Assembly: GCA_036491435.1 (NCBI GenBank)
Contig: DASXBZ010000012.1
Span: 3,819-67,818 of the forward strand
Length of the DNA stretch: 64,000 bases
Origin: Acidimicrobiales bacterium
GTDB lineage: Bacteria > Actinomycetota > Acidimicrobiia > Acidimicrobiales > RAAP-2
Reading direction: 5' to 3'
Shown in pieces: positions 6,015-64,000 of the stretch. The notes below the pieces were generated by a model. It made no database searches. It saw nothing but the letters and a program-made list of their open reading frames with translations, and had not been told where the DNA came from. Positions within the stretch are counted from its first letter, which is position 1; every line of letters starts with the position of its first letter. The translations under genes and the position numbers were made by a program.

Positions 6015-8243
6015 TCAGGCGGGCGTGGGCACCGGCGTCGATGCCGGAGTAGGAGTGGGGGTCGGGGTCGGTGTGACCTCGATCCCAAGTTTGGGCATCG
6101 AGCGGTCCATCCAGCGGGGCAGCCACCAGTTGACAGGCCCGAGCACCTCCATGATCGACGGGACGAGCACCATGCGGACCAGGGTGGCGTCGATCAGCAC
6201 CGCTGTCGCCAGCCCGAGACCGAACACCTTGAGGATGTGGAGCGGGTCCTTGATGATGAACGAGCCGAAGACGCAGAACATGATCGCCGCCGCGGCCGTG
6301 ATGATGCGGCCGGTGACGGCCAGGCCGTCCGCCACTGCGGTCGAGTTCTCGCCCGTGCGCAGCCACTCCTCGCGGATGCGCGAGAGCAGGAAGACCTCGT
6401 AGTCCATGGAGAGGCCGAAGAGGACGACGAACATCGCCACGGGGATCCAGGGGTCGATCGGCCCCTTCTCGCCGATGCCGATCACGCTCCCCGCCCAGCC
6501 CCACTGGAACACGGCCACCATCACCCCGTAGGCCGCACCGACGCTCAGCAGGTTCATGATCACCGCCTTGAGCGGAAGGACCAGCGAGCGGAAGACGACC
6601 ATGAGGAGCAGGAAAGACAGGATCAGCACCGCGGCGATCACGATGTAGAGGCGGTGGCCGAGGAAGTTGGCGGCGTCGATCGACGCCGCGGTCTCCCCGC
6701 CGACCTGCGCGTTCACGCCGGTCCCGTCGGCGATGGGCGGGATCACGTCGGAACGCAGACGGTTCACGAGGTCGACGGTCTGCGACGCCTGCGGCGAGGT
6801 CGTCGGGATGACCGGGATGAGGGCACCCGTGTCGCTCGCGTTGAACTGCGCCGGAGCCGTGAAGGCGACGCCCGGCACCCCGGAGGAGAGGGCGCGCTCG
6901 AGGTGCCGCACCGTCGGCACGTCCGAAGGCCCGTTCATGGCGACCGCGACGATGAGCGGACCGTTGAACCCGGGGCCGAATCCCTGGCCCAGGAGGTCGT
7001 AGGCCTGGCGCGTGGTCAGACTCGAAGGGTCGTTGCCGGCGTCGGTGAACTGGAGCCGCATGCTGAACAGCGGGAGTGCAAGCGCCACAAGGACGAGGAC
7101 CGCCGCGATGCCGGTGAACCAGGCCCGTCTCTGGATGAACCGGCTCCAGCGATGCCAGAACCCGTTCTCCGGCGGGGGCCCGCCGCTCTGGAGCAGCCCA
7201 GGGATGTGCAGCTTGTCGATCACGTTGCCGGCGAACCCGAGCATCGCCGGGAGGAGCGTCAGCGCCGCCAAGAGCACCATCAGCACAGCCGCGATGCAGG
7301 CGGTGGCGAGCCCGATCATGTAGGGCTGCTGAATGAGGTACAGCCCGAACAGGGAGATCACGACCGTCGTGCCAGCGAACATGACCGACCGCCCTGCGGT
7401 CATATGGGACGTCATCACCGCGTCGCGCGGCGTCCGGCCCTCGAAGATGCCTTGTCGGTACCGAGTCACGATGAAGAGCGCGTAGTCGATGCCGACGCCG
7501 AGGCCGATCATGATCGCCATCTCGGGTGAGAAGGTGGGCACCGTCAACACGTGGGTGAGCAGTTCCAGCAGGGCGATGCCGATGCCGAGCCCAGCCAGGG
7601 CGGTTATCACCGGGAGCCCCATCGCCACCACCGAGCCGAACGCCAGCAGCATGATCAGCAGCGCTGCCGTGATGCCGATGCCCTCGCTCGGTCCCGGCGC
7701 TGCGGTGGCGGCGGCGGAGATCGGACTTCCGCCCAACTCCACCTTCACCCCCTGGGTCGCCGTGCCCTGCGCCTTGGAGATGACCGTCTTCACTGCGCCA
7801 GTCGGGATGTCGGCGGTGTCCGTCGTGAACTGGATCTCGGCGTAAGCGATGTCACCTCTTGGCGCGATCTGGTGTGCTCCCTGCGCCGAGAACGGGCTGG
7901 TAATGGCCTGGACATAGGGAAGCGGTCGCACTTTGTCGATGACGCCGGTGATCGCCGCCTGGTTGGCGGCGATCGGCGTCGACGTGCGGAACACGATGTC
8001 GGCGGTGTCGCCCGACTTCGACGGGAAGCGCTCTTGGAGGATGTTCTGCGCCTGCTGCGACGGGGTGTTGCCGGCGGTGAATTTGTTCTTGAACGTGGTG
8101 CCCACCGTCACCGAGATGACCGTGATGCCGATGATTGCGCCGATCCACAGCACGAGCACGAGCCGGCGGTGGTCGTAGCACCGGCCCGCCAGGCGACCGA
8201 GCGCCGTGACCCTGGTCTCGGGGCTGATGTCCGTGCCGCTCAC
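6015..8243 (-). CDS. MMPL-family (RND superfamily) membrane transporter
   Basis: 742 aa with two six-helix hydrophobic blocks and two soluble loops, the typical MmpL layout. GTG start at 8243. C-terminal low-complexity tail VTPTPTPTPTPASTPVPTPA. Confidence 0.9.
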   Translation of the reverse strand: MSGTDISPETRVTALGRLAGRCYDHRRLVLVLWIGAIIGITVISVTVGTTFKNKFTAGNTPSQQAQNILQERFPSKSGDTADIVFRTSTPIAANQAAITGVIDKVRPLPYVQAITSPFSAQGAHQIAPRGDIAYAEIQFTTDTADIPTGAVKTVISKAQGTATQGVKVELGGSPISAAATAAPGPSEGIGITAALLIMLLAFGSVVAMGLPVITALAGLGIGIALLELLTHVLTVPTFSPEMAIMIGLGVGIDYALFIVTRYRQGIFEGRTPRDAVMTSHMTAGRSVMFAGTTVVISLFGLYLIQQPYMIGLATACIAAVLMVLLAALTLLPAMLGFAGNVIDKLHIPGLLQSGGPPPENGFWHRWSRFIQRRAWFTGIAAVLVLVALALPLFSMRLQFTDAGNDPSSLTTRQAYDLLGQGFGPGFNGPLIVAVAMNGPSDVPTVRHLERALSSGVPGVAFTAPAQFNASDTGALIPVIPTTSPQASQTVDLVNRLRSDVIPPIADGTGVNAQVGGETAASIDAANFLGHRLYIVIAAVLILSFLLLMVVFRSLVLPLKAVIMNLLSVGAAYGVMVAVFQWGWAGSVIGIGEKGPIDPWIPVAMFVVLFGLSMDYEVFLLSRIREEWLRTGENSTAVADGLAVTGRIITAAAAIMFCVFGSFIIKDPLHILKVFGLGLATAVLIDATLVRMVLVPSIMEVLGPVNWWLPRWMDRSMPKLGIEVTPTPTPTPTPASTPVPTPA

Positions 8244-8262
8244 CCGTTCACCGTCCTATGAT

Positions 8263-8275
8263 TCATCACTGATGA
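8263..8275. promoter_or_regulatory. candidate TetR operator palindrome TCATCA-C-TGATGA
   Basis: Perfect 6+1+6 dyad in the 96-bp divergent mmpL/tetR intergenic region, 20-32 nt upstream of the mmpL start. Confidence 0.4.
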
Positions 8276-8339
8276 GTTCTAACACAGAATTCCCCGCTGG
8301 TGAATACCTGTTGACCCGGCAATTCGCGGCGCCACGGCG

Positions 8340-8933
8340 GTGAGTGCCGTCGGGCGCCGGCCGGGCAACGCGGACACCAGGGGTGAGATCGTCGAGGCGG
8401 CCAAGCGCGTCTTCGCCGACAAAGGCTATGACGGCGCCAGCCTGCGCGGCGTCGCCCGCGAAGCCGGTGTCGACCCTGCGCTGGTCCACCACTATTTCGA
8501 CGGGAAGGCCAGCCTGTTCGTGGCCGCCATGGCGCTGCCCTTCGACCCGAGGCAGGTGAAGGAGCACGCCGCCGGAGCTGAGTACTCGGGCTCCCGCACC
8601 ATCGAGGGCTTCCTCACCATGTGGGACCTCGCCGAGGGCACCGGGTCGTCGTTCGCCTCGTGTCTCTCCGCCATGGCCGCCTCGACCAAGGTGGCCGATG
8701 CCATGCGCGAATTCGTCAACGAGCGCGTATGGAGCGTCCTGCGGCACAACGACGACGAAACCGAGACGGTGCGGCGGCGTCGCACCGCCATGGTCTCGTC
8801 ACAGCTGATGGGGCTGGCCTTTGCCCGCTACATCCTGCGCGTGCCACCGATGTCAACGGCATCGCCCAAGCAGATCGGGCGCTGGGTCGGACCGACGCTC
8901 GACCGCTACGTGAAGGAGCCGCTCGCGTCCTAG
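8340..8933 (+). CDS. TetR/AcrR-family transcriptional regulator
   Basis: N-terminal HTH EIVEAAKRVFADKGYDGASLRGVAREAGVDPALVHHYFDGKASLF. Divergent from mmpL. Confidence 0.9.
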   Translation: MSAVGRRPGNADTRGEIVEAAKRVFADKGYDGASLRGVAREAGVDPALVHHYFDGKASLFVAAMALPFDPRQVKEHAAGAEYSGSRTIEGFLTMWDLAEGTGSSFASCLSAMAASTKVADAMREFVNERVWSVLRHNDDETETVRRRRTAMVSSQLMGLAFARYILRVPPMSTASPKQIGRWVGPTLDRYVKEPLAS

Positions 8934-10369
8934 CCGCGGCGGCGACGGAGCTCGGCGGCGACCTCTTTGCCGTTGGCGTTGCCCGACGTCGCCTTCATCA
9001 CCTTGCCGGTGAAGAACCCCATGAGCTTGTCGTCACCATCGAGGAAACGCGCCCACTCGTCGGGGTTCGCCGCGACGACGTCGTCGACAACTGCGGCCAA
9101 CGAGTCAGCGCCCATGGCTTCGAAGCCCATTTCCTTCGCCACCGCGGCCGGGTCGCCGCCGCCCTGTTCGAGGAGGGCGGCCAGCACGGCCTTGGACTGG
9201 GTGGCCGACAGCTGCCCGCCGGACTCGAGGGCCAGCAGTGACGCAAACGAACCCGAGTCGAGACGCAACCCGGCCTCGCTTTGCGCCGCGACCTCGTTGG
9301 CGGCGCGCACCAGCGCGAGCGCCGGAGGCGCTCCCTTGTCTGACGCTGCGTTGACCAGCCCGTCGAGGCCCAGGTCGACGACCGCGTTGATCTGGTCGAG
9401 CTCGGCTGCGCTGGGGTCACCGCCGAGCGCGGTCACCAGCGCGGCACGCCGGTCGGCCGGCATGGCCCCCAGCGAGCCCCGCACCCGGTCGCGCCACGGG
9501 GCGTCGGGTGCCAACGGCACCAGATCGGGCTCGGGGAAATAGCGGTAGTCGTTCGCCTCTTCCTTCGACCGCAGCGCGTCCGTACGCCCCGCCGACTCGT
9601 CCCAATGGCGGGTCTCCTGAACGACCACGCCGCCTCCCTCGAGGAGCGCGATCTGGCGGGCCACCTCGTAGTCGATCGCACGACCGAGCGAGGAAAACGA
9701 GTTGAGGTTCTTGATCTCGCAGCGGGTGCCGAACTCGAGGCTGCCGGTCGGACGGACAGAGACGTTGGCGTCGACCCGCATGGACCCCTCCTCCATCCGG
9801 CCGTCTGACGCCCCCGTCGCCACGAGGATCCAGCGCAACTCCGATGCATACGCCCGAGCCTGTGCCGACGTGCGCATGTCGGGCTCGCTGACGATCTCGA
9901 CCAGCGGCACGCCCGAGCGGTTGTAGTCGACCAGCGCGTGCTCAGCCGCGTTGATACGGCCACTCGCGCCCACATGGGTGAGCTTGCCGGTGTCCTCCTC
10001 CATGTGCGCCCGCGTCACGCCCACCCGGAAGCCGTCGGGCAGATCCAACCACCCGTCGACGTTCAGGGGCAGGTCGTACTGGCTGATCTGATAGTCCTTG
10101 GCCTGGTCGGGATAGAAGTAGTTCTTGCGGGCGAATTCGGACGGTCGGATCTCGCAGTGGAGCGCCGTACCGATCCGCATGGCCAGCTCGACGGCCTGCT
10201 CGTTGAGAACCGGCAGTGAGCCCGGGAGCCCGATGCAGGTCGGGCAGATGTTGACGTTGGGCTCGTCGCCGAACGCATTGCGGCACCCGCAGAACAACTT
10301 GGTCTTCGTCGCGAGCTCGCTGTGCACCTCGAGCCCGATCACGGTCTCCCACTCGCTCATGGCGCGCAC
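8930..10369 (-). CDS. gatB: Asp-tRNA(Asn)/Glu-tRNA(Gln) amidotransferase subunit B
   Basis: [24 protein letters not shown]..., a full-length GatB-like sequence. Alternative ATG at 10360 directly abuts the gatA stop. Confidence 0.95.
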
Positions 10370-11778
10370 GCCTCCACGACACGGGCGACCCGGAACAACA
10401 TGGCTTCGCCCAGCGCCGGCGCCAGCACCTGCACGCCGACGGGCAAGCCGTCGTCGCCCGTGCCGAAGGGCACCGAGATCGCAGGATGCCCCGAGAGATT
10501 GGAGGGGATCGTGCAGACGTCGTTCATGTACATCGCCATGGGGTCATCCACCTTGGCCCCCAGGTCGAACGCCGTCGTCGGCGCCGTCGCCCCGAGAAGG
10601 ACGTCGTAGGACTCGTAGGCACGGTCGAAGGCCCGCATGACGAGCGTCCGCACCCGCTGCGCCTGCGCGTAATAGGCGTCGTAGTACCCGGCGGACAGGG
10701 CGTAGGTCCCGAGCATGACCCGGCGCTTCACCTCCGCCCCGAACCCGGCCGTCCGAGTGGCCGTGTTCATCGCCTCGACGTCGTCACCGTCCACCCGAAG
10801 CCCGTACCGCACGCCGTCGTAGCGGGCAAGGTTCGAGGACGCCTCGGCCGGCGCGATGAGGTAGTACGCCGAGAGGCCGTAGGAGAACTCGGGCACCGAG
10901 ACCTCCTCGACCTTCGCGCCCGCGCTCGCCAGTGCGTCGGCCGCCTCCTGCACCCGTGCGGCCACGTCCGCCGCGCACCCGTCGACCAGGTCGCGGCACA
11001 AACCGATCCGGATCCCCTCGACGCCGTCGCCGAGGCCGGGCGACGTCGGTTCCGGTGTCGACGGCAACGACGTGCTGTCCATCGGGTCGTGCCCGGCGAT
11101 GACGTCGAAAAGGAGCGCGGCGTCCTCGACCGTGGTGGAGAAGGGCCCGATCTGGTCGAGCGAGCTTGCGAAGGCCACCAGCCCATAGCGAGACACCCGG
11201 CCGTACGTCGGCTTCATCCCGACGACACCACAGAGGGCGGCGGGCTGCCGAATCGAGCCGCCGGTATCCGAGCCGAGGGCGAGCGGCGCGAAGCCGGCGG
11301 CGACCGCAGCCGCCGATCCGCCGCTGCTGCCGCCGGGGACCTTCTCGGTGGAACGAGGATTCCTCGTCGGGCCGAAGGCGGAGTTCTCGGTCGACGAACC
11401 CATGGCGAACTCGTCCATGTTCGTCTTGCCTAGCGCGACCGCACCGGCGCGCCGCAGCGCCTCGACGACCGTGGCGTCGTAGGGCGGTCGCCATCCTTCG
11501 AGGATCCGAGACCCGCAGGTCGTCGCGAACCCGCGCGTGCACAGGTTGTCCTTCAGGGCGACGGGCACCCCGGCCAGCGGGCCCGGGTCCTCTCCCGCGG
11601 CCACTGCGGCGTCGACCGCATCGGCCTGCGCCCGAGCCGCATCCTCCATCACGTCGAGGAACGTGTGGAAGCGGGCATCATCGGTCGCGACTGCGGCCAG
11701 CGCCTCATCGGTGACCTCGCGGGCCGAACGAACGCCCGAGCGCACCTCCGCGGCCAGCGACACCGCCGAAGAGGTCAC
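10357..11778 (-). CDS. gatA: Asp-tRNA(Asn)/Glu-tRNA(Gln) amidotransferase subunit A
   Basis: Amidase signature [36 protein letters not shown] overlap with gatC. Confidence 0.95.
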
Positions 11779-12092: not shown

Positions 12093-12853
12093 GGACTCAC
12101 GGCGGCCAGCACGCCGCTGAGGAACTCGACCGTGCGTGCCTCGATCTCGTCCTTGTCGTAGTCGAGCGTCGCGACGTGGTAGCTCCGTTCGAGAACGACC
12201 TGCTCGATCGGCCCCTTCACCCGCTCCAGGAGCACGTCGCTCGACGTGGGGTCGACCACGTGGTCCTGCTTGCTGGTGAACACCAACACGGGACAGGCCA
12301 CCGAGCCGAGCTTCGCCTCGACCTCCTCGACGCCCTCGAAGAGAGACAACGCCGCCCGTAGCGGCAATTCGGGGTACGCGGACTCGACCGAGCCCTCCAT
12401 GGCGATGTCCGAGCCGATGCCCGGCGCGATCTCGTCGCCGCCCTCGATCATGGCCTCGATGAACCCTGTCGTAGCCGTGTCGGGTGGGGTCACCAGGGGG
12501 TTCACCACCGCCAACGCCGCCACCTCGGGATGATGCTCCGCCAACCAGACGGCGAGGCTCCCGCCCATCGACAGCCCGACCACCGCCACCGCGTCGCAAC
12601 GGGCCGCCAACGCGGTGAACGCGTCGTCGGCCGCCTCACACCATTCGGGCCACCGGGTCGGCACCATGTCGGAGATGTCGGTGCCGTGGCCGGGAAGCAG
12701 TGGCAGCTCCACCGTGAAACCGGCGTCCGCCAGCGCGAGGGCCAACCCGCGCATCGACTGGGGGTTGCCGGTGAACCCGTGGAGGACGAGTGCGCCGCGC
12801 GCGTCGCCGGTGGCCGAATAGGGCTCTGCACCGGGGATGATGGGGTGGGTCAC
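12089..12853 (-). CDS. alpha/beta hydrolase (carboxylesterase/lysophospholipase-like)
   Basis: [13 protein letters not shown], nucleophile elbow GLSMGGS, C-terminal [10 protein letters not shown]. Start taken at GTG 12853 (VTHPIIPG). Confidence 0.8.
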
Positions 12854-12966
12854 GAATCGGCAGCCTACTGGCGAGGGGAGTAGGGTTCCGGCGGCCAGAA
12901 GGCTCCGGGCGGGGCGACAGAGGCGCACCAAACGAGCGAGACCGAAGACGAAGGAGCACAAACGAA

Positions 12967-13380
12967 ATGGCGTCGTACCCGTTCCTCAGCGACGAATGGC
13001 TGGATCAGGCGCGCAAGATCCGCGCCGAGTACGAGGGCAAGACGGCGCCGATCCCCCACGTCGTCCGCATGAACCTCGTCGTGACCGCGGTCCCCTTCTC
13101 GGAGGAGGACATCCTCGCCCACATGGACACCTCGAGCGGTGAGTTGGTCCTCGACACGGGCCACCTCGAGACCCAGGACCTCAAGGTGACGGTCGACTAC
13201 GACACCGCCAAGGCGATCCTGATCGAGGGAAACCCCCAGGCAGGCATGCAGGCCTTCATGGCCGGCAAGGTGCGCGTCGAGGGCGACATGGCGAAGCTGA
13301 TGGCGCTCCAGGCCGCCCCGGCGGCGACCGACCCGACGGCAGCCGAGTTGGCCGGCCGCATCCGCGACATCACCGAGTAA
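12967..13380 (+). CDS. SCP2 sterol-binding-domain protein
   Basis: 137 aa. AAGGAG RBS upstream. C-terminal QAGMQAFMAGKVRVEGDMAKLMALQ is typical of SCP2. Confidence 0.75.
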   Translation: MASYPFLSDEWLDQARKIRAEYEGKTAPIPHVVRMNLVVTAVPFSEEDILAHMDTSSGELVLDTGHLETQDLKVTVDYDTAKAILIEGNPQAGMQAFMAGKVRVEGDMAKLMALQAAPAATDPTAAELAGRIRDITE

Positions 13381-13387
13381 CGAGCAG

Positions 13388-15055
13388 TCAGGCGGGGTCG
13401 ACAAGCAGTTGAGCGGCCCGCGCCGAGCGCGGCAACGGGCGAATGAAGAGCGCACAGACCACGGCCAGTGCGGCCACGAACGTGCCCACCCAGAACGGCA
13501 CGCTGAAACTGTGGAGCAGCGCGGTGCTGTGGTGCACGTTGCCCAGCCCCGAGTTCTTCGCGATCGTCTCCTGGATCGTCAGCACGAGCTGGATGCCGGC
13601 CACCTCTCCCACTTGCGCGGCCAGCAACTGCGCCGCGCTCATGACGCCGTACTCGGACTCCGCGAGCTCGTTCGACATCGTCGACGAGGTCGCCGGCATG
13701 GACACCCCCATCCCGAGTCCCGAGAGAGCCAGCGCCACCACGACCACGATGATCGCCGACGAGGCCCCGAGCGTCGCGAAGATCACCATGGAGAGCAGGA
13801 GCGACACCGTCCCGAAGAGCGTCGCCGTCCGCTCCCCCGTCCGCACGGTCATGTACCCGGCGATGGGCGCGCTGATCGCGAATACCAAGGGCCGCGCCAC
13901 GGACAGGAACCCGACCTGCGACACGCTGTATCCGTAGACCTGTTCCATGAGCAACGGGAACAGGAAGAACGCGCCGAAGTAGGCGAAGCTGGTGCAGAAC
14001 TTCGTGCCCATTGGGAACATGAAGTTGCGTCGTCGCCAATAGGTCGTCGGTATGAGCGGCGTGGCGAAGGTCGCCTCCCTCCATACGAAGATGACACCCA
14101 ACGTCACCGCGACGGCGCCCGACACGACGACACCAACCGAGGTCCAGCCTGCGATCGGCCCGATGCTCAGCACGAGCATGGCGGCGGTCACGCCACCGGC
14201 CAGACTCCAGCTCCCGACCCAGTCCATGCCCGCCCAGACGCTGGGCTTCTTCCCATTGGCCTCGACCGCCTCGTCGACGGCCGGCGGCGCCTTCGTCCGT
14301 CGTCGGGTCGGCAACAGGGTCGCCACCACGACCGAGGCGATCACCAGCAGCACCAGTTGGCCCCAGAAGAGGGTCCGCCAACCGAAGTACTGGATCACCG
14401 GTGACCCCAGCGTCACCCCGAGGACCGGCCCGCCGGCCCCCACCAGCGACCACCAACCCAGGGCCTTCACCCGATCCTGGGGCGCGAAGAGCTCGAGGAT
14501 GATGGCCATCGACGCCGTTCCTGTCGCTGCGCCCTGGACGCCGTCGAGGACGCGGGCGAACAGCAGCATCCCTACGTCCGGCGCGGTGGCGGTGAGGACC
14601 GCACTGACCATGGCCCCGAGCAGTCCGAACTGATAGAGCCGGCGGTGGCCGAACAGGTCGCCCGCCTTGCCGAAGAACGGCGCCGCCACGCCGAATGCCA
14701 GCAGTGGTCCCGTCGAGGCCCAGGCGAGCACCGAGAAGTTGGTGTGGAATTCCGCCTTGACCGTGGGGAGCGCCACGACGAAGACGGTGAACGTGATGTT
14801 GAGGGCCAGCAGCCCGGACAAGAGGGCCACCAGCGCCCACCACTGGTAGCGGGGGCTCCGGACCGCCCGGTCCGTGACGCGGCGGCGCAGCAGGACGAAC
14901 CAGTTGGTGTTGACCGACCCGTCCCCCAGGGTCCCCATGGCCGCTCCGCCTGGATCCGCCACCGGGTCGAGGAGCGCGTCAGATCGCTCGACCGGTGATC
15001 CGTCCATCTGGGACACCCTACCGGGGGCCAATTTCCCGATTTCCTGCGCCGCCAA
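13388..15055 (-). CDS. MFS transporter (DHA2/EmrB-like, about 14 TM)
   Basis: Repeated hydrophobic helices. Motif FGKAGDLFGHRRLY, which resembles MFS motif A. Exact start uncertain. Confidence 0.85.
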   Translation of the reverse strand: MAAQEIGKLAPGRVSQMDGSPVERSDALLDPVADPGGAAMGTLGDGSVNTNWFVLLRRRVTDRAVRSPRYQWWALVALLSGLLALNITFTVFVVALPTVKAEFHTNFSVLAWASTGPLLAFGVAAPFFGKAGDLFGHRRLYQFGLLGAMVSAVLTATAPDVGMLLFARVLDGVQGAATGTASMAIILELFAPQDRVKALGWWSLVGAGGPVLGVTLGSPVIQYFGWRTLFWGQLVLLVIASVVVATLLPTRRRTKAPPAVDEAVEANGKKPSVWAGMDWVGSWSLAGGVTAAMLVLSIGPIAGWTSVGVVVSGAVAVTLGVIFVWREATFATPLIPTTYWRRRNFMFPMGTKFCTSFAYFGAFFLFPLLMEQVYGYSVSQVGFLSVARPLVFAISAPIAGYMTVRTGERTATLFGTVSLLLSMVIFATLGASSAIIVVVVALALSGLGMGVSMPATSSTMSNELAESEYGVMSAAQLLAAQVGEVAGIQLVLTIQETIAKNSGLGNVHHSTALLHSFSVPFWVGTFVAALAVVCALFIRPLPRSARAAQLLVDPA

Positions 15056-57159: not shown

Positions 57160-57734
57160 GACGCCACCGCCCGGGACGCTCCGGACCCCTCGGACGCCCC
57201 GGAGCCCCCGGACCGCCGGTACCCAAACCCCGTATACGACTCCAGCGCCACGAGATCCCCGTCCTGGTTCGTGTAGACGACGTCGATCACCCAGAACCGC
57301 CCGGTACCCAACTTGGTCGTCTTCTCACCGCTCACCGATCGCAGCACCTGATGCGTCCGCAGCACGTCGCCCACCCGCACTGGCGTATGGAACTCGATCG
57401 TGTTGTCGGTCATCACGGCCTCGGGCAGCCCGAGATGCTCCTTCAGGTCGAAGTGCACCTGCAGCGGCAGCGCCTGCTCGGCGCGCCCCGGCGCCCAGTG
57501 GTGCGGGCGGAACCACACCGACACCATGGTGGGCGGCGCCACCGGCCCCCTGGTGATCGACTCCGCCACCGAGTCGTCCCAGAACAACGGGTTCCCGTTC
57601 TCCACCGAGGCGCACGACGTCCAGATGTAGCCACGCTCGACCGGGAACTCCCCGACCTCGTGGTACTGCTCCATTCCGATGACGTCGCGCACCGCGGCCG
57701 GCAGATCGGCGGCGGACGAGTCGGTCGCCGTCAC
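57156..57734 (-). CDS. MaoC N-terminal-type (HadA/ChsH1-like) hot-dog subunit
   Basis: GYIWTSCASVENGNPLFWDD...RFWVIDVVYTNQDG. GTG 57734 overlaps the upstream stop (GTGA). Confidence 0.75.
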   Translation of the reverse strand: MTATDSSAADLPAAVRDVIGMEQYHEVGEFPVERGYIWTSCASVENGNPLFWDDSVAESITRGPVAPPTMVSVWFRPHHWAPGRAEQALPLQVHFDLKEHLGLPEAVMTDNTIEFHTPVRVGDVLRTHQVLRSVSGEKTTKLGTGRFWVIDVVYTNQDGDLVALESYTGFGYRRSGGSGASEGSGASRAVAS

Positions 57735-58912
57735 GCCACCACCCCCTGGGCCACCCATCGCGCCACCGTCTCACCGTCCACGCCCGCCTCCTTCAACAGG
57801 TGCTGGGTGTCGCTCTGCCCCGTATCAGGCAAAGCGACCACCCCGTCGGGACGCGGCATACCCGCCAACAAGGGTGCGAGCTGTCGGAGCTCGCCATGCT
57901 CCGGATGCGAGGCGGCCCCGACCACCCGCCGGGCCGAAAACTGGGGGTCGGCGACCACTTCGCTCACCTCGAGCACCGGCGCCACACAAGTGTCGGCACC
58001 GGCCAGCGCGGCCACCCACTCGTCGCGCGTCCGATCGGCGAACGCCTCCGCCAACGCCGCCCGCACCCGACCCTGCGCCTCGTCGTCGTACTGCAGCACC
58101 GCCAGCTCGCCGCACCCGAGCGCCTGGCACAGGTTGGCGAAGAACTTGCCCTCGATCGCCCCCACGGCCACCCACTTGCCGTCCGACGTTCCGTAAACCC
58201 CGTAGCAGGCGTAGCGGCCCGACAACACGTCGTGTCCGGGCCGCACATCAACACCCAACGCAAGCTGCTCGTCGATGGCGAGTGACATCAACCACAGCAC
58301 CCCGTCCGCCACCGACACATCGAGATACGCGCCCCGCCCGCTCGACGCTCGCCCCGCCAGCGCGGCGGTGACCGCCAACGCGGCGTGCATCCCGCCCGCC
58401 GCGGCATCAGCGATGGTCGCGCCCGGGATCGGCGGCGCGCCGTCCTCTCCCGGTCCGCTCATTGCCAGGTACCCGCCGACCGCCAGGTAGTCGAGGTCGT
58501 GTCCCGCCCACTGGGCGTGCGGCCCGTCCTGGCCGTAGCCGCTCGTCGAGCAGTAGACGATCCCGGGATTCCGAGCCGAGACCGCCTCGTAGCCCAAGCC
58601 CAACCGTTCCATCACCCCGGGCCGGAAGCTCTCCACCACGACATCGGACACCGCGGCCAATGCCAGGAACGCCTCCTTCCCCTCCGAGGCCTTCAGGTCG
58701 AACATCGCACGACGCATGCCGCGGTGGCCGCTGTAGGAAAAGAAGGGCGGCACGATCGGTTCGGCACCGGCCGCCGGTACCGGTCCCACCTTCACCACGT
58801 CCGCGCCGTAGCCGGCCAACAGGTGCGTGCACCGCGAAGCGGGCCCGACTGTCGACAGGTCGAGCACGGTGACCCCGGCCAGAGGCCCGGCGGCGGCAGC
58901 TGCAGCGGCCAT
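57731..58912 (-). CDS. class III (CaiB/BaiF-family) CoA-transferase
   Basis: LAGVTVLDLSTVGPASRCTHLLAGYGADVVKV, DVVVESFRPGV, catalytic-region GHDLDYLA. ATG 58912. Confidence 0.85.
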   Translation of the reverse strand: MAAAAAAAGPLAGVTVLDLSTVGPASRCTHLLAGYGADVVKVGPVPAAGAEPIVPPFFSYSGHRGMRRAMFDLKASEGKEAFLALAAVSDVVVESFRPGVMERLGLGYEAVSARNPGIVYCSTSGYGQDGPHAQWAGHDLDYLAVGGYLAMSGPGEDGAPPIPGATIADAAAGGMHAALAVTAALAGRASSGRGAYLDVSVADGVLWLMSLAIDEQLALGVDVRPGHDVLSGRYACYGVYGTSDGKWVAVGAIEGKFFANLCQALGCGELAVLQYDDEAQGRVRAALAEAFADRTRDEWVAALAGADTCVAPVLEVSEVVADPQFSARRVVGAASHPEHGELRQLAPLLAGMPRPDGVVALPDTGQSDTQHLLKEAGVDGETVARWVAQGVVA

Positions 58913-58916
58913 GACG

Positions 58917-60098
58917 TCAGAAGTTCTTGGGAAGCCCGAGCTTGCGCCGGGCGATGATGTTCTTCTGGATCTCGGAGGCACCGCCGCCGATGGTGTCGAT
59001 CACCGTGTAGCGGTAGGTCGACTCGGACCGTCCCGCCAAAGGCGCGTCTGGTGTCTTCACCCGCAGTTGCGAACCGGGTCCCGCGATGTCCATCGACGCG
59101 TTCGCCAAGCGCTTGGACAGCTCGGTCGCGAAGAGCTTGTACTCCGATGCCCACGCTGTCGGCGCCGCCCCGCCCTTCGCCGACTCGAACACGAAGCGCA
59201 GCCCGATCGTCCGCGCCACTTCGAGCTGTGTGGCCAACTGCGCCAAGCGCTGGCGCACCACCGGGTCGTCCTTCAACGGCTTCCCATCCCGCACGGTCGT
59301 CTTCACATATTCGACGAGCAACTCGAAGCGCTGCTGGATGGGCGAGATGGTGAACATCGTGAAGCGCTCGAGGTCGAGCGCCTCCGAGATGTACTGGAAG
59401 CCGTGGTTCACCTCGCCGACCACGTAGTCGTCCGGAACGAAGACGTCGTTGAGGAACACCTCGTTGGTGCGTTCGTCACCCATGGTCCAGATGGCGTTGA
59501 TCGTGATGCCGGGTTGGTCGAGCGGCACCAGGAAGAGCGTGATGCCGGCGTGCTTCGGCGCCTCGGGGTCGGTGCGGGCGCCCACCCAGTACCACTCGGC
59601 GAAGTGGGCGGAGGTCGTCCAGGTCTTCTGGCCGTTGAGTCGCCAGCCACCGTCGACCTTGGTCGCCTTCAGCTGCATGGAGGCAGCGTCGCTCCCGGCG
59701 TTGGGCTCGGAGTAGCCGACGGCGAACTCCACCTCGTTGCGCAGGATCTTGGGGAGGAACTCCTCCTTCAGCGTCTCGTTGCCGTGCCGGATGATGGTCT
59801 TGCCGACGATGCCGACGCCCTTGCCGATCTGGGGGCCGCCCCGGCCGGCCAGCTGCTCGTTGAGCAGGTACTCGTAGACGCCCTCGCCCTCGGAGCCCCC
59901 GTATTCCTTGGGCCAGGTCATGCCCAGCCACCCCTTCTGTCCGAGCGAGGCCATGAACCTCCGCCGCTTCGGGGTGTCGACGATCTGGGCCATGTTCTCC
60001 CGGGTCGGGTCGAAGACGTCGGGGTCGTCGTTGGCGTCGATGAAGGACTCGACCTCCTTCACGAAGGCCAGCTGCTCCGGTGCGAATTCGAAGTCCAC
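58917..60098 (-). CDS. acyl-CoA dehydrogenase
   Basis: GYSEPNAGSDAAS, KTWTTSAH, ALDLERF (helix-G Glu as in the IVD type), TIGGGASEIQKNIIA. GGAGGG RBS before GTG 60098. Confidence 0.9.
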   Translation of the reverse strand: MDFEFAPEQLAFVKEVESFIDANDDPDVFDPTRENMAQIVDTPKRRRFMASLGQKGWLGMTWPKEYGGSEGEGVYEYLLNEQLAGRGGPQIGKGVGIVGKTIIRHGNETLKEEFLPKILRNEVEFAVGYSEPNAGSDAASMQLKATKVDGGWRLNGQKTWTTSAHFAEWYWVGARTDPEAPKHAGITLFLVPLDQPGITINAIWTMGDERTNEVFLNDVFVPDDYVVGEVNHGFQYISEALDLERFTMFTISPIQQRFELLVEYVKTTVRDGKPLKDDPVVRQRLAQLATQLEVARTIGLRFVFESAKGGAAPTAWASEYKLFATELSKRLANASMDIAGPGSQLRVKTPDAPLAGRSESTYRYTVIDTIGGGASEIQKNIIARRKLGLPKNF

Positions 60099-60238: not shown

Positions 60239-61195
60239 TTGCGAGCGGCCTCCTACACTCGCCCCGTGGGACGGGGGGCCAGGATCGTCGTGCGCATCGG
60301 CGCGGTCCTCGTCGCCCTCGGGCTGCTCCTCGTGGCCTTCGTGGCCTACCAGCTCTGGGGGACGGCCCTCTACGAGGCCCAGGCGCAGTCGCACCTCAAG
60401 TCGGAGCTGTCCCACGAGCTGCGTCGCCCCCTCCCCACGAAGCTGACGGCGTCCCAGCGTCTCGGACTTCCGGCGATCGCCACGGTGACGGCACCCACCC
60501 GACCCGACCCCGCGCTCGACCAGCCCGTCGGGCTGCTGTCCATCCCCAAGATCGGCCTTCTCGACGCCATCGTCGAGGGCGTCGGAGAGGCGCAGCTCGA
60601 GCAGGGCCCGGGCCACTACCCCGGCACATCGATGCCGGGACAAGCGGGGAACGTGGCCATCGCGGGGCATCGCACGACGTACGCCCACCCCTTCTACAAC
60701 CTCGATGCGCTCTCCCCCGGCGACGACATCTACATCCTCACGGCACAGGGCCTCTTCCACTACACGGTGAACGGAACCCAGATCGTCGCGCCGACCACCG
60801 TCGGCGTTCTGAACACCGTTCCGGGGAAGTCGACCCTCACCCTCACGACGTGTAACCCCCGCTACAGCGCTTCGCAGCGACTGGTGGTGACGGCCGCTCT
60901 CGATGCTCGCCCGGCCCCTCCGACGAGCACGATCACCTCCACGACGAGGCCCAAGGACGCGGAGCTGGCGGGCGAATCGACCTCGTCGCTCGGCGGTTCG
61001 AGCTCGCCATGGGCGTCCGTCATCGTCTGGGGGTTGGTCACGATGGCGCTCGTCGTAGGGGCCTATCTCTTGTGGCGATTCTTAAGGCAACGGATTCTGC
61101 GGCTGGTGGTGGTGCTCACCGCCGTCCCGCTGTTCTTGTTCTCGCTCCTCACGTGCTTCGAGCACGTGAGCCTGGCCCTGCCGGGGAGCTTCTGA
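60239..61195 (+). CDS. class E-like sortase with extra C-terminal TM pair
   Basis: N-terminal TM IGAVLVALGLLLVAFVAY, GNVAIAGHRTTYAHPF, TLTLTTCNPRYSASQRLVV. C-terminal WASVIVWGLVTMALVVGAYLLW and LVVVLTAVPLFLFSLL. Start ambiguous (TTG 60239, GTG 60266 or GTG 60290). Confidence 0.8.
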   Translation: MRAASYTRPVGRGARIVVRIGAVLVALGLLLVAFVAYQLWGTALYEAQAQSHLKSELSHELRRPLPTKLTASQRLGLPAIATVTAPTRPDPALDQPVGLLSIPKIGLLDAIVEGVGEAQLEQGPGHYPGTSMPGQAGNVAIAGHRTTYAHPFYNLDALSPGDDIYILTAQGLFHYTVNGTQIVAPTTVGVLNTVPGKSTLTLTTCNPRYSASQRLVVTAALDARPAPPTSTITSTTRPKDAELAGESTSSLGGSSSPWASVIVWGLVTMALVVGAYLLWRFLRQRILRLVVVLTAVPLFLFSLLTCFEHVSLALPGSF

Positions 61196-61205
61196 ACAGA
61201 AACCC

Positions 61206-62144
61206 TTAGACCGTCGTCACCTGTTGCGTCGGTGGCGATTCCACAACCGGCAGTTCACCCGTTATGGGTTCGGTCGGTGGCTCTGGGTGATTGCGCCCGT
61301 GACGGCGTCGCATGATGTTGCGTACGGCAAGCAGGATCATCTGGACGAGCACGATCGCCACGAGCAGCAGTCCAACCGGCCAGATCGTCACTGGCACCTT
61401 GAAAGATGCCTGCTGGCCATCTCCGATGAAGATGTGCCCGTTCAGATTCATGTTCCCGACGGAGAGCGCCGGGATCGTCACGGACACTTCGTACGTCTTC
61501 GTCTCGCCGGGGCCGACCGGCGGAAGGTGCGTGTTGAGGACGGGCGTCGAATCCAAATCAGCGATCAAGTGAAGCGACGTAGCCGGCGCTGCACCGGTGT
61601 TGGTGAGAGTGAGATCCAGGGTCCGGGTGGCGGGAAAGCCAAACCAGGCGGCGACGGGAGTCGAACCGGCTAACTCGCTCTTTGCGACAACGAGGTGGCT
61701 CAGCGGGACCGTAGGTGGTGAAGCCGGCGCTGGCGTCGTGCTTGCGCCCGGGATGGAGATCGGTGTCGTGACCGCCAACGCGGTCGTGACCGAGAAGGCT
61801 GCGACAACACAGGGGCAGGCAGTGGGGGGAACGACGACGGTAAGCGGCACGCTGAGATTGCCGCTGGTATCTGCTTCGATCGTCGCCGACGCGACGCCAG
61901 CACAATCGGCCGAACCGTGCGTAGCGTTCTGACCGCAGACCTGCACCTGGAAGAGCGATCGCGCCGGAAACCCCGAGCCGGAGACTTGGACCGTCTGGCC
62001 TGACGCCGCAGTTGCAGGGGCCAGCGAGAGGCTCGGTTTGGCCGATGCTGCGTCGACAGCTCCGGTCGGTACAACGACCAGGACGACCAGCGCCGTGAAG
62101 GTCGCCAACAATGACCTCCACGACAGCCGGAAGATCCCGGTCAT
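61206..62144 (-). CDS. secreted, C-terminally TM-anchored two-domain beta-sandwich protein (paralogue A)
   Basis: Signal peptide ...VVVPTGAVDAASA. 4-Cys domain (VQVCG, SADC, PPTACPCVV). CARDB-like second domain (TLDLTLTNTGAAP...GPGETKTYEVSV). Anchor TIWPVGLLLVAIVLVQMILLAV-RNIMRRRHG. Confidence 0.7.
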   Translation of the reverse strand: MTGIFRLSWRSLLATFTALVVLVVVPTGAVDAASAKPSLSLAPATAASGQTVQVSGSGFPARSLFQVQVCGQNATHGSADCAGVASATIEADTSGNLSVPLTVVVPPTACPCVVAAFSVTTALAVTTPISIPGASTTPAPASPPTVPLSHLVVAKSELAGSTPVAAWFGFPATRTLDLTLTNTGAAPATSLHLIADLDSTPVLNTHLPPVGPGETKTYEVSVTIPALSVGNMNLNGHIFIGDGQQASFKVPVTIWPVGLLLVAIVLVQMILLAVRNIMRRRHGRNHPEPPTEPITGELPVVESPPTQQVTTV

Positions 62145-62593
62145 GAGGCTGGTAGGTGATTACAAACGTGCTGCAGGCCCAGGTAGCCGCCGAGGGTGCC
62201 GAACACACGGGCGATGCCGCTTACGTTCGCTGCGCCCTTTGACTTCGATTTCGCGCTCTTGGGCGCGGTCGTTGTTGTCGTGGTTGCCGCTTGCGCGACT
62301 TCACCACCCTTCACCTCTTCCGCGTACTTCTTCAGGGGCAGGTAACTCGCCGAACCCGCCTGACTCGCAATCTGCTGCATGTCGGAGCGCCAAGACGTGA
62401 AGTCTTTGGCGTTGTACGCCGTGGTTGCTTTAGCCACCAACTGGCAAATGGCGACATCACCAGCTCCGGGAGGTGGCGACGTGGTGGCGGCACTGTTGTT
62501 GCTCGTCGGTGAGCTGCCACATGCCGTGAGCGCGGTTGCGCACGTGAGGGCGGCGACGGCCGTGGCCAACCGGACGCCGAAGCGGCGAGTCAT
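62141..62593 (-). CDS. putative lipoprotein
   Basis: Lipobox ALTACGSS, Thr run TTTTTT and KSAKSKSKG. ATGA overlaps at both ends (62141-62144 and 62590-62593). Confidence 0.65.
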   Translation of the reverse strand: MTRRFGVRLATAVAALTCATALTACGSSPTSNNSAATTSPPPGAGDVAICQLVAKATTAYNAKDFTSWRSDMQQIASQAGSASYLPLKKYAEEVKGGEVAQAATTTTTTAPKSAKSKSKGAANVSGIARVFGTLGGYLGLQHVCNHLPAS

Positions 62594-63531
62594 TGGGAAG
62601 CTCCTATCTGGCTAAGTTCCTGAGGGGCATCGTCGTGCTTCCATCCGGGATCTACGCCTTGATCCTGCTCGCCGTCCCGGCGGCGGTACTGCGCTCCGAT
62701 GATGACGGCAAGCGCGAGCAGGACGGCCACCGCTGCAAGCACTCCGAGCACATAGAGGGCCCATGGAGTCGTGCTCGTCGAACTGGCAAGCCTGACTTCG
62801 AAGCCTGCTCCAGAGACGTTCCCGACGACGGGAAACGTGCCATCGGAAAACGTGGACAAGTCAAATGGCGCCGTGATCTGTGTGCTCTGTCCCGCGCCGA
62901 GGATGCGAGCTTGCGGACTCGTGATGACGAAATGGTCGCCACCCTGCACCCAATGCGCCACGAGGAGCGGCCGAATTGCAGTCGAACCTGCATTGCGGAC
63001 GCTGACGATCAGTTGCCTCGATGCCGCCGCACCGAACCATGAGGTCCAAGTACTAGTGGAGACCACGCGAACATGAGATATCCGAACTATGGGGAGAACC
63101 GTAGGAGGCACTTCGACGGGCGCACTCGAGGAGCCCAAGATCGTGATCGGCAAACGCTCCACCTCGCTCGGATATGCCTGGGTCACCATCACGATGCATG
63201 GACACGGAACCGGTGGAATCGTCACCACAAGTGACGTCTGAACTCCGCCATTGTCGGCAGGACCGAAGGACACAGCATGCGTAAGGTCGCAATCCGAACT
63301 CACTGAAACGACGCCGCCACCGCAGACGGCCGCCTGTAGTTGCCGGTCTTTCGGCCAATGTGCGCCTTCGACCACGACCGTCGAGCCTGGCGTGACGACT
63401 GTCTTGTCCAGGCTGAGTGCTGGCGGACCGGCTGCTCCGGCCGGAGAAGGGATGTGCGTTCCACACGCGATGACGAGCACTGTGCCCAAGACCCTAAGGA
63501 CGACACCTACCGCGCGGTTACGTCGGCCCAT
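62590..63531 (-). CDS. secreted, C-terminally TM-anchored two-domain beta-sandwich protein (paralogue B)
   Basis: Same layout as 61206-62144: AAVCG, SSDC, PPVPCPCIV, then LIVSVRNAGSTA. Anchor TTPWALYVLGVLAAVAVLLALAVIIGAQY-RRRDG. Confidence 0.7.
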   Translation of the reverse strand: MGRRNRAVGVVLRVLGTVLVIACGTHIPSPAGAAGPPALSLDKTVVTPGSTVVVEGAHWPKDRQLQAAVCGGGVVSVSSDCDLTHAVSFGPADNGGVQTSLVVTIPPVPCPCIVMVTQAYPSEVERLPITILGSSSAPVEVPPTVLPIVRISHVRVVSTSTWTSWFGAAASRQLIVSVRNAGSTAIRPLLVAHWVQGGDHFVITSPQARILGAGQSTQITAPFDLSTFSDGTFPVVGNVSGAGFEVRLASSTSTTPWALYVLGVLAAVAVLLALAVIIGAQYRRRDGEQDQGVDPGWKHDDAPQELSQIGASQ

Positions 63532-63537
63532 ACTCGG

Positions 63538-64000
63538 TTAGACACTTGATGTAGCCAAGTTGGCGGGTTCAGTGTCGCCGTCCACCGCCCCTCCGCCTGC
63601 TGCTGCTGCCCGACGCTTACGTCGCCTCCGGTACCAGAAGAAGCCGATAATCAACACGATGATGGCGATCAAGATCCATGGGATGACCCAAGCCGTCGCG
63701 GTCGCGCTCGTCGTACCAGCGCCGGATGTCACAGTCAGGTTTGCCGTCAGGCGAAGGAAGGCCTCCTTGCTCGACAGATGATAGGTGACAGTCACCGAGT
63801 TATGCGGGAGCAGGGACGAATAGATCTTGGGGGGAATGTTGGTGCTCGAACCGAGCAGCGGAGAGACACTGAGCTTCGCGGTCGGATTCAAGATTTGGTT
63901 TCCGGTATTGGTCACGGTGTAGGAAACAGTGGAACGGACCGGGCCACCGGCGTAGCCCGCAAAGCCCGAGGTGCCGATCGAGAGCTTTGTGATCGACAAG
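63538..64000 (-). CDS. C-terminal part of a TM-anchored surface protein (5' end outside window)
   Basis: Frame open to the window edge. Beta-sandwich-like VSYTVTNTGNQILNP...LLPHNSVTVTYHL. Anchor AWVIPWILIAIIVLIIGFFWY-RRRRKRR. TAA stop at 63538-63540. Confidence 0.65.
   Translation of the reverse strand, partial: LSITKLSIGTSGFAGYAGGPVRSTVSYTVTNTGNQILNPTAKLSVSPLLGSSTNIPPKIYSSLLPHNSVTVTYHLSSKEAFLRLTANLTVTSGAGTTSATATAWVIPWILIAIIVLIIGFFWYRRRRKRRAAAAGGGAVDGDTEPANLATSSV

Follow-up and report, generated by a model that had tools for sequence, protein, structure and literature searches.

WxL proteins are ∼91% from Firmicutes, almost all from Lactobacillales and Bacillales (PMC9772566; PMC10599100), and the known WxL clusters include csc of Lactobacillus plantarum (Siezen 2006, PMC1534035), loci A to C of Enterococcus faecium, and elr of Enterococcus faecalis (PMC9772566, PMC10599100). 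A WxL gene cluster is defined as at least one WxLIP and at least two WxL genes within four genes (Hassan et al. 2023, PMC10599100); a WxLIP is described as DUF916 plus DUF3324 plus a transmembrane helix (PMC10599100), and PDB entry 9i25 contains E. faecium WxLIP1 bound to a long WxL protein. Our literature search found no paper on actinobacterial WxL clusters. Here, we describe the end (61206 to 64000) of a 64,000-nucleotide stretch of DNA (the window; positions 3,819 to 67,818 of contig DASXBZ010000012.1, GenBank assembly GCA_036491435.1) from an uncultured Acidimicrobiales bacterium of the Actinomycetota (RAAP-2), in which four minus-strand genes, A to D, abut a class E sortase gene. This region is probably the downstream half of a WxL-type (Csc-like) surface-display cluster, with the B and D proteins as co-subunits of the WxLIP that is encoded by A.

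A DUF916 protein at the window edge

The window ends within gene A, of which the 3′ part (153 codons plus stop) occupies 63538 to 64000 on the minus strand; the TTG "start" at 63999 in the open reading frame (ORF) list is an artefact of the window edge, and A is open at 64000. An exact-protein look-up finds two public contigs, L001 and L002, that are 100% identical to the window across 3.9 kb and run on upstream past 64000. Three contigs with the same DNA as the window (L001, L005, and L006) lengthen the locus upstream. The full-length A protein recovered from L001 has 341 amino acids and matches PF06030 (WxLIP_PGBD, formerly DUF916) with 30.5 bits (cutoff, 27.3; E, 4e-7). EfmWxLIP1 is the sole significant PDB match of A7, a family profile of A, through entries 9i25_C (E, 1.8e-5) and 9i1y_A (E, ∼2e-5). 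Because PF06030 scores above its cutoff and the family profile reaches EfmWxLIP1, A is, as judged by its sequence, a bona fide WxLIP.

The remaining features of A agree with this assignment. Its N-terminal hydrophobic leader ends in ASA-A (read by eye), its length lies within the 337 to 365 amino acids of WxLIPs, and it has a single C-terminal transmembrane helix. The minus strand of the window encodes a second beta-rich domain (within 63538 to 64000), the transmembrane helix (63631 to 63690; WVIPWILIAIIVLIIGFFWY), and a basic tail, RRRRKRR (63610 to 63630), and the DUF916/PGBD domain and signal peptide are encoded beyond 64000. A shares with EfmWxLIP1 (9i1y and 9i25) its length, domain order, DUF916 match, and transmembrane helix with a basic tail, and, as in Firmicutes, the WxLIP here has a signal peptide, two immunoglobulin-like (Ig-like) domains, and a transmembrane helix. 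A is named "DUF916 domain-containing protein" at NCBI, as are its homologues in Streptomyces, Micromonospora, and Kitasatospora; it adds one member to a family that is already known, and databases already label actinobacterial DUF916 proteins as such. An earlier, sequence-only reading of this stretch had proposed that the gene chain continues past 64000, which the identical contigs confirm, and that the anchor of the last protein of the chain is reminiscent of DUF916/DUF3324 (CscA-type) proteins of WxL loci. The latter idea is correct for the cluster, but the DUF916 protein is the edge ORF, A, and not the last ORF, D.

A divergent WxL-like domain in the upstream proteins

The gene order in L005 is a giant protein (at least 1,964 amino acids), a 345-amino-acid WxLIP that is a paralogue of A, a divergently transcribed 397-amino-acid protein ending in LAYTG, a 647-amino-acid protein, A, B, C, D, and the convergent sortase. 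The 647-amino-acid and giant proteins have a common C-terminal domain of ∼220 amino acids with the motifs TLDGLEQ, IYISDNRG...W-S/T-L, and a terminal AG-Y-G-SVQY-x-V; it is longer than the 160 to 190 amino acids of a two-motif WxL domain and has extra Cys pairs. The first Trp-x-Leu motif is kept (GQWSLTA) with a nearly invariant Trp. A HMMER profile scan over 1.84 billion representatives finds this domain family in 108 clusters, and the short WxL-domain matches of the database search are fragments of long genes. Apart from the C terminus, the N-terminal two-thirds of the 647-amino-acid protein has no match in Pfam or NCBIfam.

A distant family member, P0212 (reached by profile A2), clears the WxL model PF13731 (29.7 bits; cutoff, 25), and P0203, P0209, and P0195 match it below threshold. 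In other Actinomycetota, the genes directly 5′ of the WxLIP gene end in a "...G-Y-T-G-T-L-T-L-T-L" motif; that of L014 (Actinomadura flavalba) scores 27.6 bits on PF13731 (cutoff, 25), that of L042 (a related Actinomadura, where it directly precedes the D-like gene) scores 25.0 bits, equal to the cutoff of 25, and those of Nocardiopsis and Catenulispora match below threshold. The hhalign comparison of A1 (the WxL-like domain) with A6 (the C termini of these actinobacterial upstream genes, L014 included) gives a probability of 98.6% and an E value of 1e-15, in a comparison that is partly circular, as three A6 rows came from the A2 profile search. Because of the transitive link through P0212 and the profile-profile match to upstream genes that pass PF13731, we read the C terminus of the 647-amino-acid and giant proteins as a putative WxL domain of divergent type, with Y/L-x-V/L in the place of the second Trp-x-Leu.

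If this domain is counted as WxL, the gene content and spacing in L005 are those of a WxL gene cluster as defined. As in the Firmicute clusters, a secreted WxL-type protein is followed by a ∼340-amino-acid membrane-anchored DUF916 protein, two WxL-like and two WxLIP genes lie within five genes, an LPxTG/LAxTG wall-anchored protein is encoded in the cluster, and there are no enzymes. The locus differs from them in its actinomycetotal (Acidimicrobiia) host, in its divergent WxL domain (second motif Y-x-V, extra Cys pairs, and subthreshold on PF13731), in a WxLIP that has no detectable DUF3324 signature, and in its extra components, namely the B/D family, lipoprotein C, and the adjoining class E sortase.

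The B/D family of membrane-anchored proteins

Genes B (62590 to 63531; 313 amino acids) and D (61206 to 62144; 312 amino acids) code for full-length paralogues (25% identity; E, 1e-20) with N-terminal signal-like sequences, read by eye. All B and D features are on the minus strand. In B, a neocarzinostatin-like Ig domain (∼63139 to 63438) with a C-x10-C loop (63289 to 63324) and a CPC motif (63196 to 63204) is followed by a WxLIP-type second domain (∼62782 to 63099), a transmembrane segment (62686 to 62766), an RRR element (62668 to 62685), and a short cytoplasmic tail. The same order is seen in D, with the Ig domain at 61794 to 62024, C-x10-C at 61902 to 61937, CPC at 61809 to 61817, the second domain at 61383 to 61706, the transmembrane segment at 61323 to 61385, and RRR at 61293 to 61310, ahead of the cytoplasmic tail. 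An alignment of 14 family members has invariant Cys, Pro, and Gly residues, the four invariant Cys residues being arranged as C-x10-C plus PPxxCPC.

The C-terminal half of the B/D family is related to WxLIPs (BLASTP E, 8e-4; hhalign, 97.2% and E, 4e-11 across 119 columns), and residues 147 to 268 of D are the part that aligns to the WxLIP second domain and transmembrane segment. Neither B nor D matches PF06030 (DUF916). Because PF06030 is absent and the homology is limited to the second domain and transmembrane segment, B and D are regarded as WxLIP derived and not as WxLIPs; in the light of these profiles, they are best described as derivatives that keep the second domain, transmembrane segment, and basic tail, and have the DUF916 domain swapped for a disulfide-stabilized Ig head of the neocarzinostatin fold. 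They share the second domain and anchor with EfmWxLIP1 by profile-profile comparison and differ from it in having, in the place of DUF916, an Ig domain of the neocarzinostatin fold whose four Cys residues are invariant; they would therefore be without the region proposed for strand insertion into WxL. The sequence-only reading had pointed to one anchor pattern in three of the four proteins. This pattern, a W/P patch, ∼20 hydrophobic residues, and RRR or RRRRKRR, is present in A, B, and D, and the profile-profile comparison shows that it is homologous rather than convergent. An AlphaFold2 model of D (predicted local distance difference test [pLDDT], 72) has two beta-sandwiches and a long helix (residues 257 to 285); a fold search with this model is consistent with a WxLIP derivative but not diagnostic of one.

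In public records, D is a "neocarzinostatin apoprotein domain-containing protein," and B and C are each a "hypothetical protein." We note that the B leader (residues 21 to 25; 63456 to 63470) contains V-I-A-C, which is lipobox-like; its Cys is missing from the L004 and L010 orthologues, and a lipoprotein assignment was set aside since this Cys is not conserved, the leader probably being an ordinary signal peptide. Public gene calls (NCBI VGF51_01140 and JGI) list B at 158 amino acids, compared with 313 here, and the LAYTG protein (L001:709-1902) at 159 to 168 amino acids, compared with 397 here. ORF starts in high-GC DNA are uncertain, and the long forms of both proteins are backed by orthologue alignments; gene-finding programs may be misled at these two genes by their atypical codon usage.

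The four genes form a closely spaced chain. Six nucleotides (63532 to 63537) separate the A stop from the B start, and ATGA stop/start overlaps join B to C (62590 to 62593) and C (62141 to 62593; 150 amino acids) to D (62141 to 62144), with AGGAG 9 nucleotides 5′ of the C start. The D gene converges with the sortase gene (60239 to 61195, plus strand) across a 10-nucleotide gap (61196 to 61205) that has no terminator-like hairpin. All of these spacings are exactly as the sequence-only reading gave them. A consensus scan finds 3 terminator-like sites (2.1 ± 1.6 expected from shuffles), none of them at this junction, and no excess of promoters over chance. The sequence-only reading had recognized no catalytic motif, and A to D have no enzymatic family match in Pfam or NCBIfam; its view of a co-directional module of membrane-anchored extracytoplasmic proteins is supported, the leaders and the C lipobox being read by eye. 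The word "uncharacterized" that it applied is fair for B, C, and D, but the cluster type itself is known.

Conservation across Actinomycetota

A GTDB scan at one genome per species, using a D-family alignment and two peptide patterns, finds 38 loci, which we annotated with profiles built from the family alignments; it is not a census, and most of the comparison loci are from metagenome-assembled genomes (MAGs). Uncultured Acidimicrobiaceae are the nearest genomes in GTDB, and five other MAGs of this family have the whole cluster in the same position beside the sortase, acyl-CoA dehydrogenase, and family III CoA-transferase genes. The cluster and the sortase are also present in a sixth, L011, its flanks not being part of the synteny count. 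The other 32 loci belong to Ilumatobacteraceae, Microthrixaceae, Streptomyces, Actinomadura, Nocardiopsis, Nocardioides, Catenulispora, and other groups. Because only D was used to find them, the adjacency of a WxLIP gene is an independent observation. In 30 of these 32, a WxLIP gene is immediately 5′ of a single B/D-like gene, and in at least 10 the WxLIP stop and B/D start overlap by 4 nucleotides.

The two exceptions are L029, which is at a contig edge, and L042 (Actinomadura sp. 9N407; 8391 to 11002), in which a WxL gene (484 amino acids) and, 153 nucleotides further on, a B/D-like gene have no WxLIP gene in between or immediately 5′ of them; the B/D-like protein may substitute for the WxLIP there. 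In L013 (Ilumatobacter sp. MAG; DATMEY010000009.1, 414 to 3467), the WxLIP and B/D-like proteins are in one reading frame, as a WxLIP transmembrane segment with RRR, a linker, a second hydrophobic segment, a CPC-bearing neocarzinostatin-like domain, a further transmembrane segment, and RRRR, a topology that leaves both ectodomains outside. It is either a natural fusion or a MAG sequencing error. Ten Streptomyces loci (L016, L018, L019, L021, L023, L024, L028, L030, L035, and L036; ∼8000 to 9000) code for an LPQTG, LPKTG, or LPRTG protein 5′ of the WxLIP-B/D pair. This Gly/Ser-rich protein of ∼220 to 280 amino acids, with a sorting motif, transmembrane segment, and RRR, replaces the WxL protein, and WxLIP homologues in this genus have diverged much further (E, 1e-10 to 1e-29). 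Because the WxLIP-B/D pair recurs with either a WxL or an LPQTG partner upstream, the ancestral unit appears to be a displayed protein, a WxLIP, and a B/D-like protein, in that order, and the B-C-D arrangement here appears to be a lineage-specific duplication with an inserted lipoprotein.

Between the sortase and acyl-CoA dehydrogenase genes of L010, a complete Acidimicrobiaceae chromosome (OY969891.1), lies a third WxL-like gene (12094 to 14163; 689 amino acids; profile E, 1e-99); with a WxL-like gene beyond the sortase, the locus boundary is therefore not fixed.

Several observations count against assigning this locus to a WxL system in which B and D are co-subunits. The A protein has no Pfam match to DUF3324/HBD (which we take to be PF11797) at an E value of ≤1, nor is there one in the precomputed domains of 74 relatives; its second domain is beta-rich, in the expected place, and matches DUF7507 weakly. 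The second Trp-x-Leu motif of the WxL-like domain is absent, with Y-L-V, Y-T-V, or Y-L-A instead. PF13731 is the sole Pfam match of the 647-amino-acid protein's C terminus, at 13 bits (E, 0.11; cutoff, 25), and matches 3 of 14 family members, all at E values of ≥0.04. The circularity in the A1-A6 comparison belongs here also, and neither of these profiles reaches the WxL chain of 9i25 among PDB sequences. An AlphaFold2 model built from alignment A4 (18 sequences) has a mean pLDDT of 59.7, with the WxL-like domain mostly below 70 (mean, ∼54), and a Foldseek search with this poor model yields generic Ig matches for the preceding domain only. Unlike typical Firmicute clusters, there is no small WxL protein (WxL domain only) in L001 or L005. 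Foldseek matches of the D model are to generic tandem Ig proteins (transglutaminase barrels and RbmA), with EfmWxLIP at ranks 45 to 46 and a template-modeling score of ∼0.25. The L013 fusion could be a sequencing error, all Acidimicrobiia comparison loci being MAGs.

An alternative is that B, C, and D act as adhesins or receptors in their own right and have only the operon in common with the WxL and WxLIP genes; their neocarzinostatin-like heads would bind an environmental ligand or a neighboring cell, and there would be no physical link to WxLIP or WxL proteins. In its favor, the tandem Ig architecture is generic, the 25- to 40-residue tails that follow the transmembrane segment may signal, and the Streptomyces partner is an LPQTG protein, such that the WxL link is not universal. 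However, the adjacency to WxLIP genes in 30 of 32 loci, the 4-nucleotide overlaps, the one fusion, and the second domain and anchor common to WxLIP and B/D proteins all argue against independent functions, and we consider this alternative unlikely.

Composition and inheritance

The A-to-D region (61206 to 64000) is the lowest-GC 2.8-kb stretch of the whole window, with a GC content of 0.622, compared with 0.69 ± 0.017 in 21 non-overlapping windows (z = −4.2), and is where the tetranucleotide distance from the window profile is greatest (z = 3.7). The shift is located at third codon positions, where the GC content (GC3) is 0.65 to 0.74 in the A-to-D region and 0.84 to 0.93 in the sortase and two adjacent genes. 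The fall in GC content described in the sequence-only reading is thus real in a sliding-window analysis and is matched by the tetranucleotide deviation, but its baseline of 73 to 77% came from local peaks and overstated the contrast.

It had further proposed horizontal acquisition, and these drops in GC, GC3, and tetranucleotide similarity would suit an acquired island coding for a novel surface complex unlike known systems, as would the small size of the families, which extend to 18 matches for D and 21 for the WxL-like domain, besides the 108 clusters noted above. The comparative data oppose this. The cluster has identical flanks in the five Acidimicrobiaceae MAGs, the sliding-window GC content also drops across the locus in L003 and L004, and in L004, the single relative in which GC3 was measured per gene, GC3 is 0.72 to 0.88 inside the locus and 0.96 to 0.98 outside. 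No tRNA is found in the window, no Rfam family in the window or L005, and no integrase or transposase among the Pfam-annotated called genes of related loci, in which no search was aimed at integrases or flanking repeats. Novelty is likewise hard to reconcile with A as a bona fide WxLIP and with homologous gene pairs across Actinomycetota, and the island explanation is improbable.

Recent transfer is unsupported because the cluster keeps the same flanks in genomes whose D proteins are only 50 to 76% identical. In the same genome pairs, the locus proteins are 39 to 69% identical, the sortases 59 to 85%, and the flanking metabolic enzymes 75 to 96%. Recent horizontal transfer was rejected on the shared synteny, the GC dip in the relatives examined, and this faster divergence. 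The simplest reading is a surface locus that is inherited vertically, evolves fast, and has weak codon adaptation, although an ancient acquisition, before divergence of the family, is conceivable.

We note that the flanks (57731 to 60098, with L004 and L005) place lipid/steroid-side-chain-type catabolic genes around the surface locus. These code for a family III CoA-transferase, acyl-CoA dehydrogenases, and a MaoC-like hydratase, and in L004 also a ChsH2-type OB-fold protein and a thiolase, the gene for which directly abuts the LAxTG gene. The giant-protein/WxLIP pair is absent from the L004 locus and present in this genome.

The sortase, the LAYTG protein, and lipoprotein C

The convergent sortase clears the class E model NF033747 (class_E_sortase; 176.8 bits; cutoff, 160) and matches PF04203 (E, 2e-33); the models for classes C, D, and F are under their cutoffs. 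Class E sortases recognize LAxTG. The divergently transcribed 397-amino-acid protein combines a neocarzinostatin-like N-domain with a C-terminal LAYTG, a hydrophobic stretch, and R, and L004 encodes two such sorting-signal proteins, with LAFTG and LAYTG. The sortase is likely the transpeptidase for the LAYTG protein, which is encoded upstream of the operon and outside the window. The pairing of a class E sortase with an LAxTG neighbor is as in the housekeeping LAxTG anchoring of Actinobacteria, from which A to D differ in not being sortase substrates: none of the four has a sorting signal, and no sorting-signal ORF is present in the window. In addition to its N-terminal membrane segment, the sortase is extended at the C terminus (residues ∼249 to 310) by a region that contains two more hydrophobic segments, WASVIVWGLVTMALVVGAYLLW and LVVVLTAVPLFLFSLLTCF, and this extension is kept in the L004 orthologue.

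The C protein has a lipobox, LTAC (62519 to 62530, minus strand), that is conserved in L004, followed by a small domain with two further Cys residues and a Thr/Lys-rich linker. It has no match in Pfam, NCBIfam, or the PDB, and among the loci examined its orthologues are confined to the Acidimicrobiaceae versions (L003 to L012).

The adjoining sortase in Acidimicrobiaceae relatives and the nearby LAxTG proteins could be taken to suggest a sortase-dependent pilus or wall-anchored fiber. However, the sortase is class E and not the pilus-polymerizing class C, whose model it scores at 86.2 bits against a cutoff of 160; no LPxTG/LAxTG motif precedes the transmembrane segment of A, B, or D, and their tails are long; and only 4 of the 32 loci outside Acidimicrobiaceae have a sortase within 10 kb. 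A pilus is thus very improbable. An S-layer was also rejected, as no S-layer family is matched and the proteins are transmembrane anchored.

Neocarzinostatin-like head domains

The D protein clears PF00960 (27.0 bits; cutoff, 25) and scores 41.6 bits on NF040680 (E, 1e-10), for which the equivalog cutoff is 86; B scores 15.5 bits on NF040680 and does not match PF00960. The apoproteins of macromomycin (E, 0.002), C-1027, and neocarzinostatin are the top PDB matches of the B/D family profile. The N-domains of D and, more weakly, of B and the LAYTG protein match the first 70 to 80 residues of PF00960 apoproteins, and the Cys-x10-Cys loop resembles the first disulfide of neocarzinostatin-type apoproteins. 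The B/D domain differs from these in being membrane anchored and in multidomain proteins, in having CPC as its second Cys pair, and in the equivalog score; no enediyne genes are among the annotated flanking genes. These comparisons indicate a relationship at the level of the fold and not an enediyne chromoprotein. Sequestration or presentation of a reactive metabolite at the membrane by B and D, which the PF00960, NF040680, and PDB matches might suggest, is scarcely credible given an NF040680 score far under the equivalog cutoff, the fusion of the domain to a WxLIP-type anchor and its linkage to WxLIP genes in many non-producers, the CoA-transferase and acyl-CoA dehydrogenase as the two window genes beside the sortase, and no polyketide or enediyne families in Pfam-annotated called genes within 10 kb of related loci.

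Model and implications

From the domain identities and gene linkage that we observe, together with homology to the Firmicute systems, we propose that secreted WxL-like proteins are held noncovalently at the cell surface by the membrane-anchored WxLIP, A. The DUF916 domain of A would bind their C-terminal domain, by analogy with the complex of E. faecium WxLIP1 and long WxL, and the variable N-terminal Ig-like parts of the WxL-like proteins would be the displayed, presumably adhesive, moiety. B and D, with the WxLIP stalk (the second Ig-like domain), transmembrane segment, and basic stop-transfer tail under a different head, would belong to this membrane platform as additional subunits, made in a fixed ratio with the WxLIP by coupled translation; we propose them as co-subunits because of their near-universal coupling to WxLIP genes. 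Their heads may broaden the set of partners on display or make contact with the LAYTG wall protein as a bridge, this protein having a like Ig domain, and C would be a lineage-specific lipoprotein accessory. These roles for B, C, and D are speculative.

What is new here is the divergent type of WxL domain, the B/D family with its tight linkage to WxLIP genes, and the Acidimicrobiaceae version with B-C-D, LAxTG, and sortase E components. More tentatively, and with rather less confidence than we would need to adopt it, coupled translation and the occasional fusion raise the idea that B/D-type proteins are previously unrecognized, Actinomycetota-wide WxLIP-derived anchors and obligate WxLIP partners, forming a three-component noncovalent display system of high-GC Gram-positive bacteria that is distinct from Firmicute WxL. 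Like-with-like Ig contacts may, in Acidimicrobiaceae, link this system to wall proteins that are anchored by sortase E.

WxL clusters in Lactobacillales and Bacillales are tied to gut colonization and virulence. If our reading of this locus is correct, the WxL system extends to a second phylum, mainly of soil and water monoderms, with a recognizable but divergent version in Acidimicrobiia, Streptomyces, Actinomadura, Nocardiopsis, Nocardioides, and Catenulispora. The second Trp-x-Leu motif would then be dispensable, such that the Pfam WxL model under-detects the family, and a conserved family whose members are now labeled as hypothetical or neocarzinostatin apoprotein domain proteins would gain a context. 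The function of these systems would then go beyond binding to a host and could, for instance, be to attach cells to particles or polymers.

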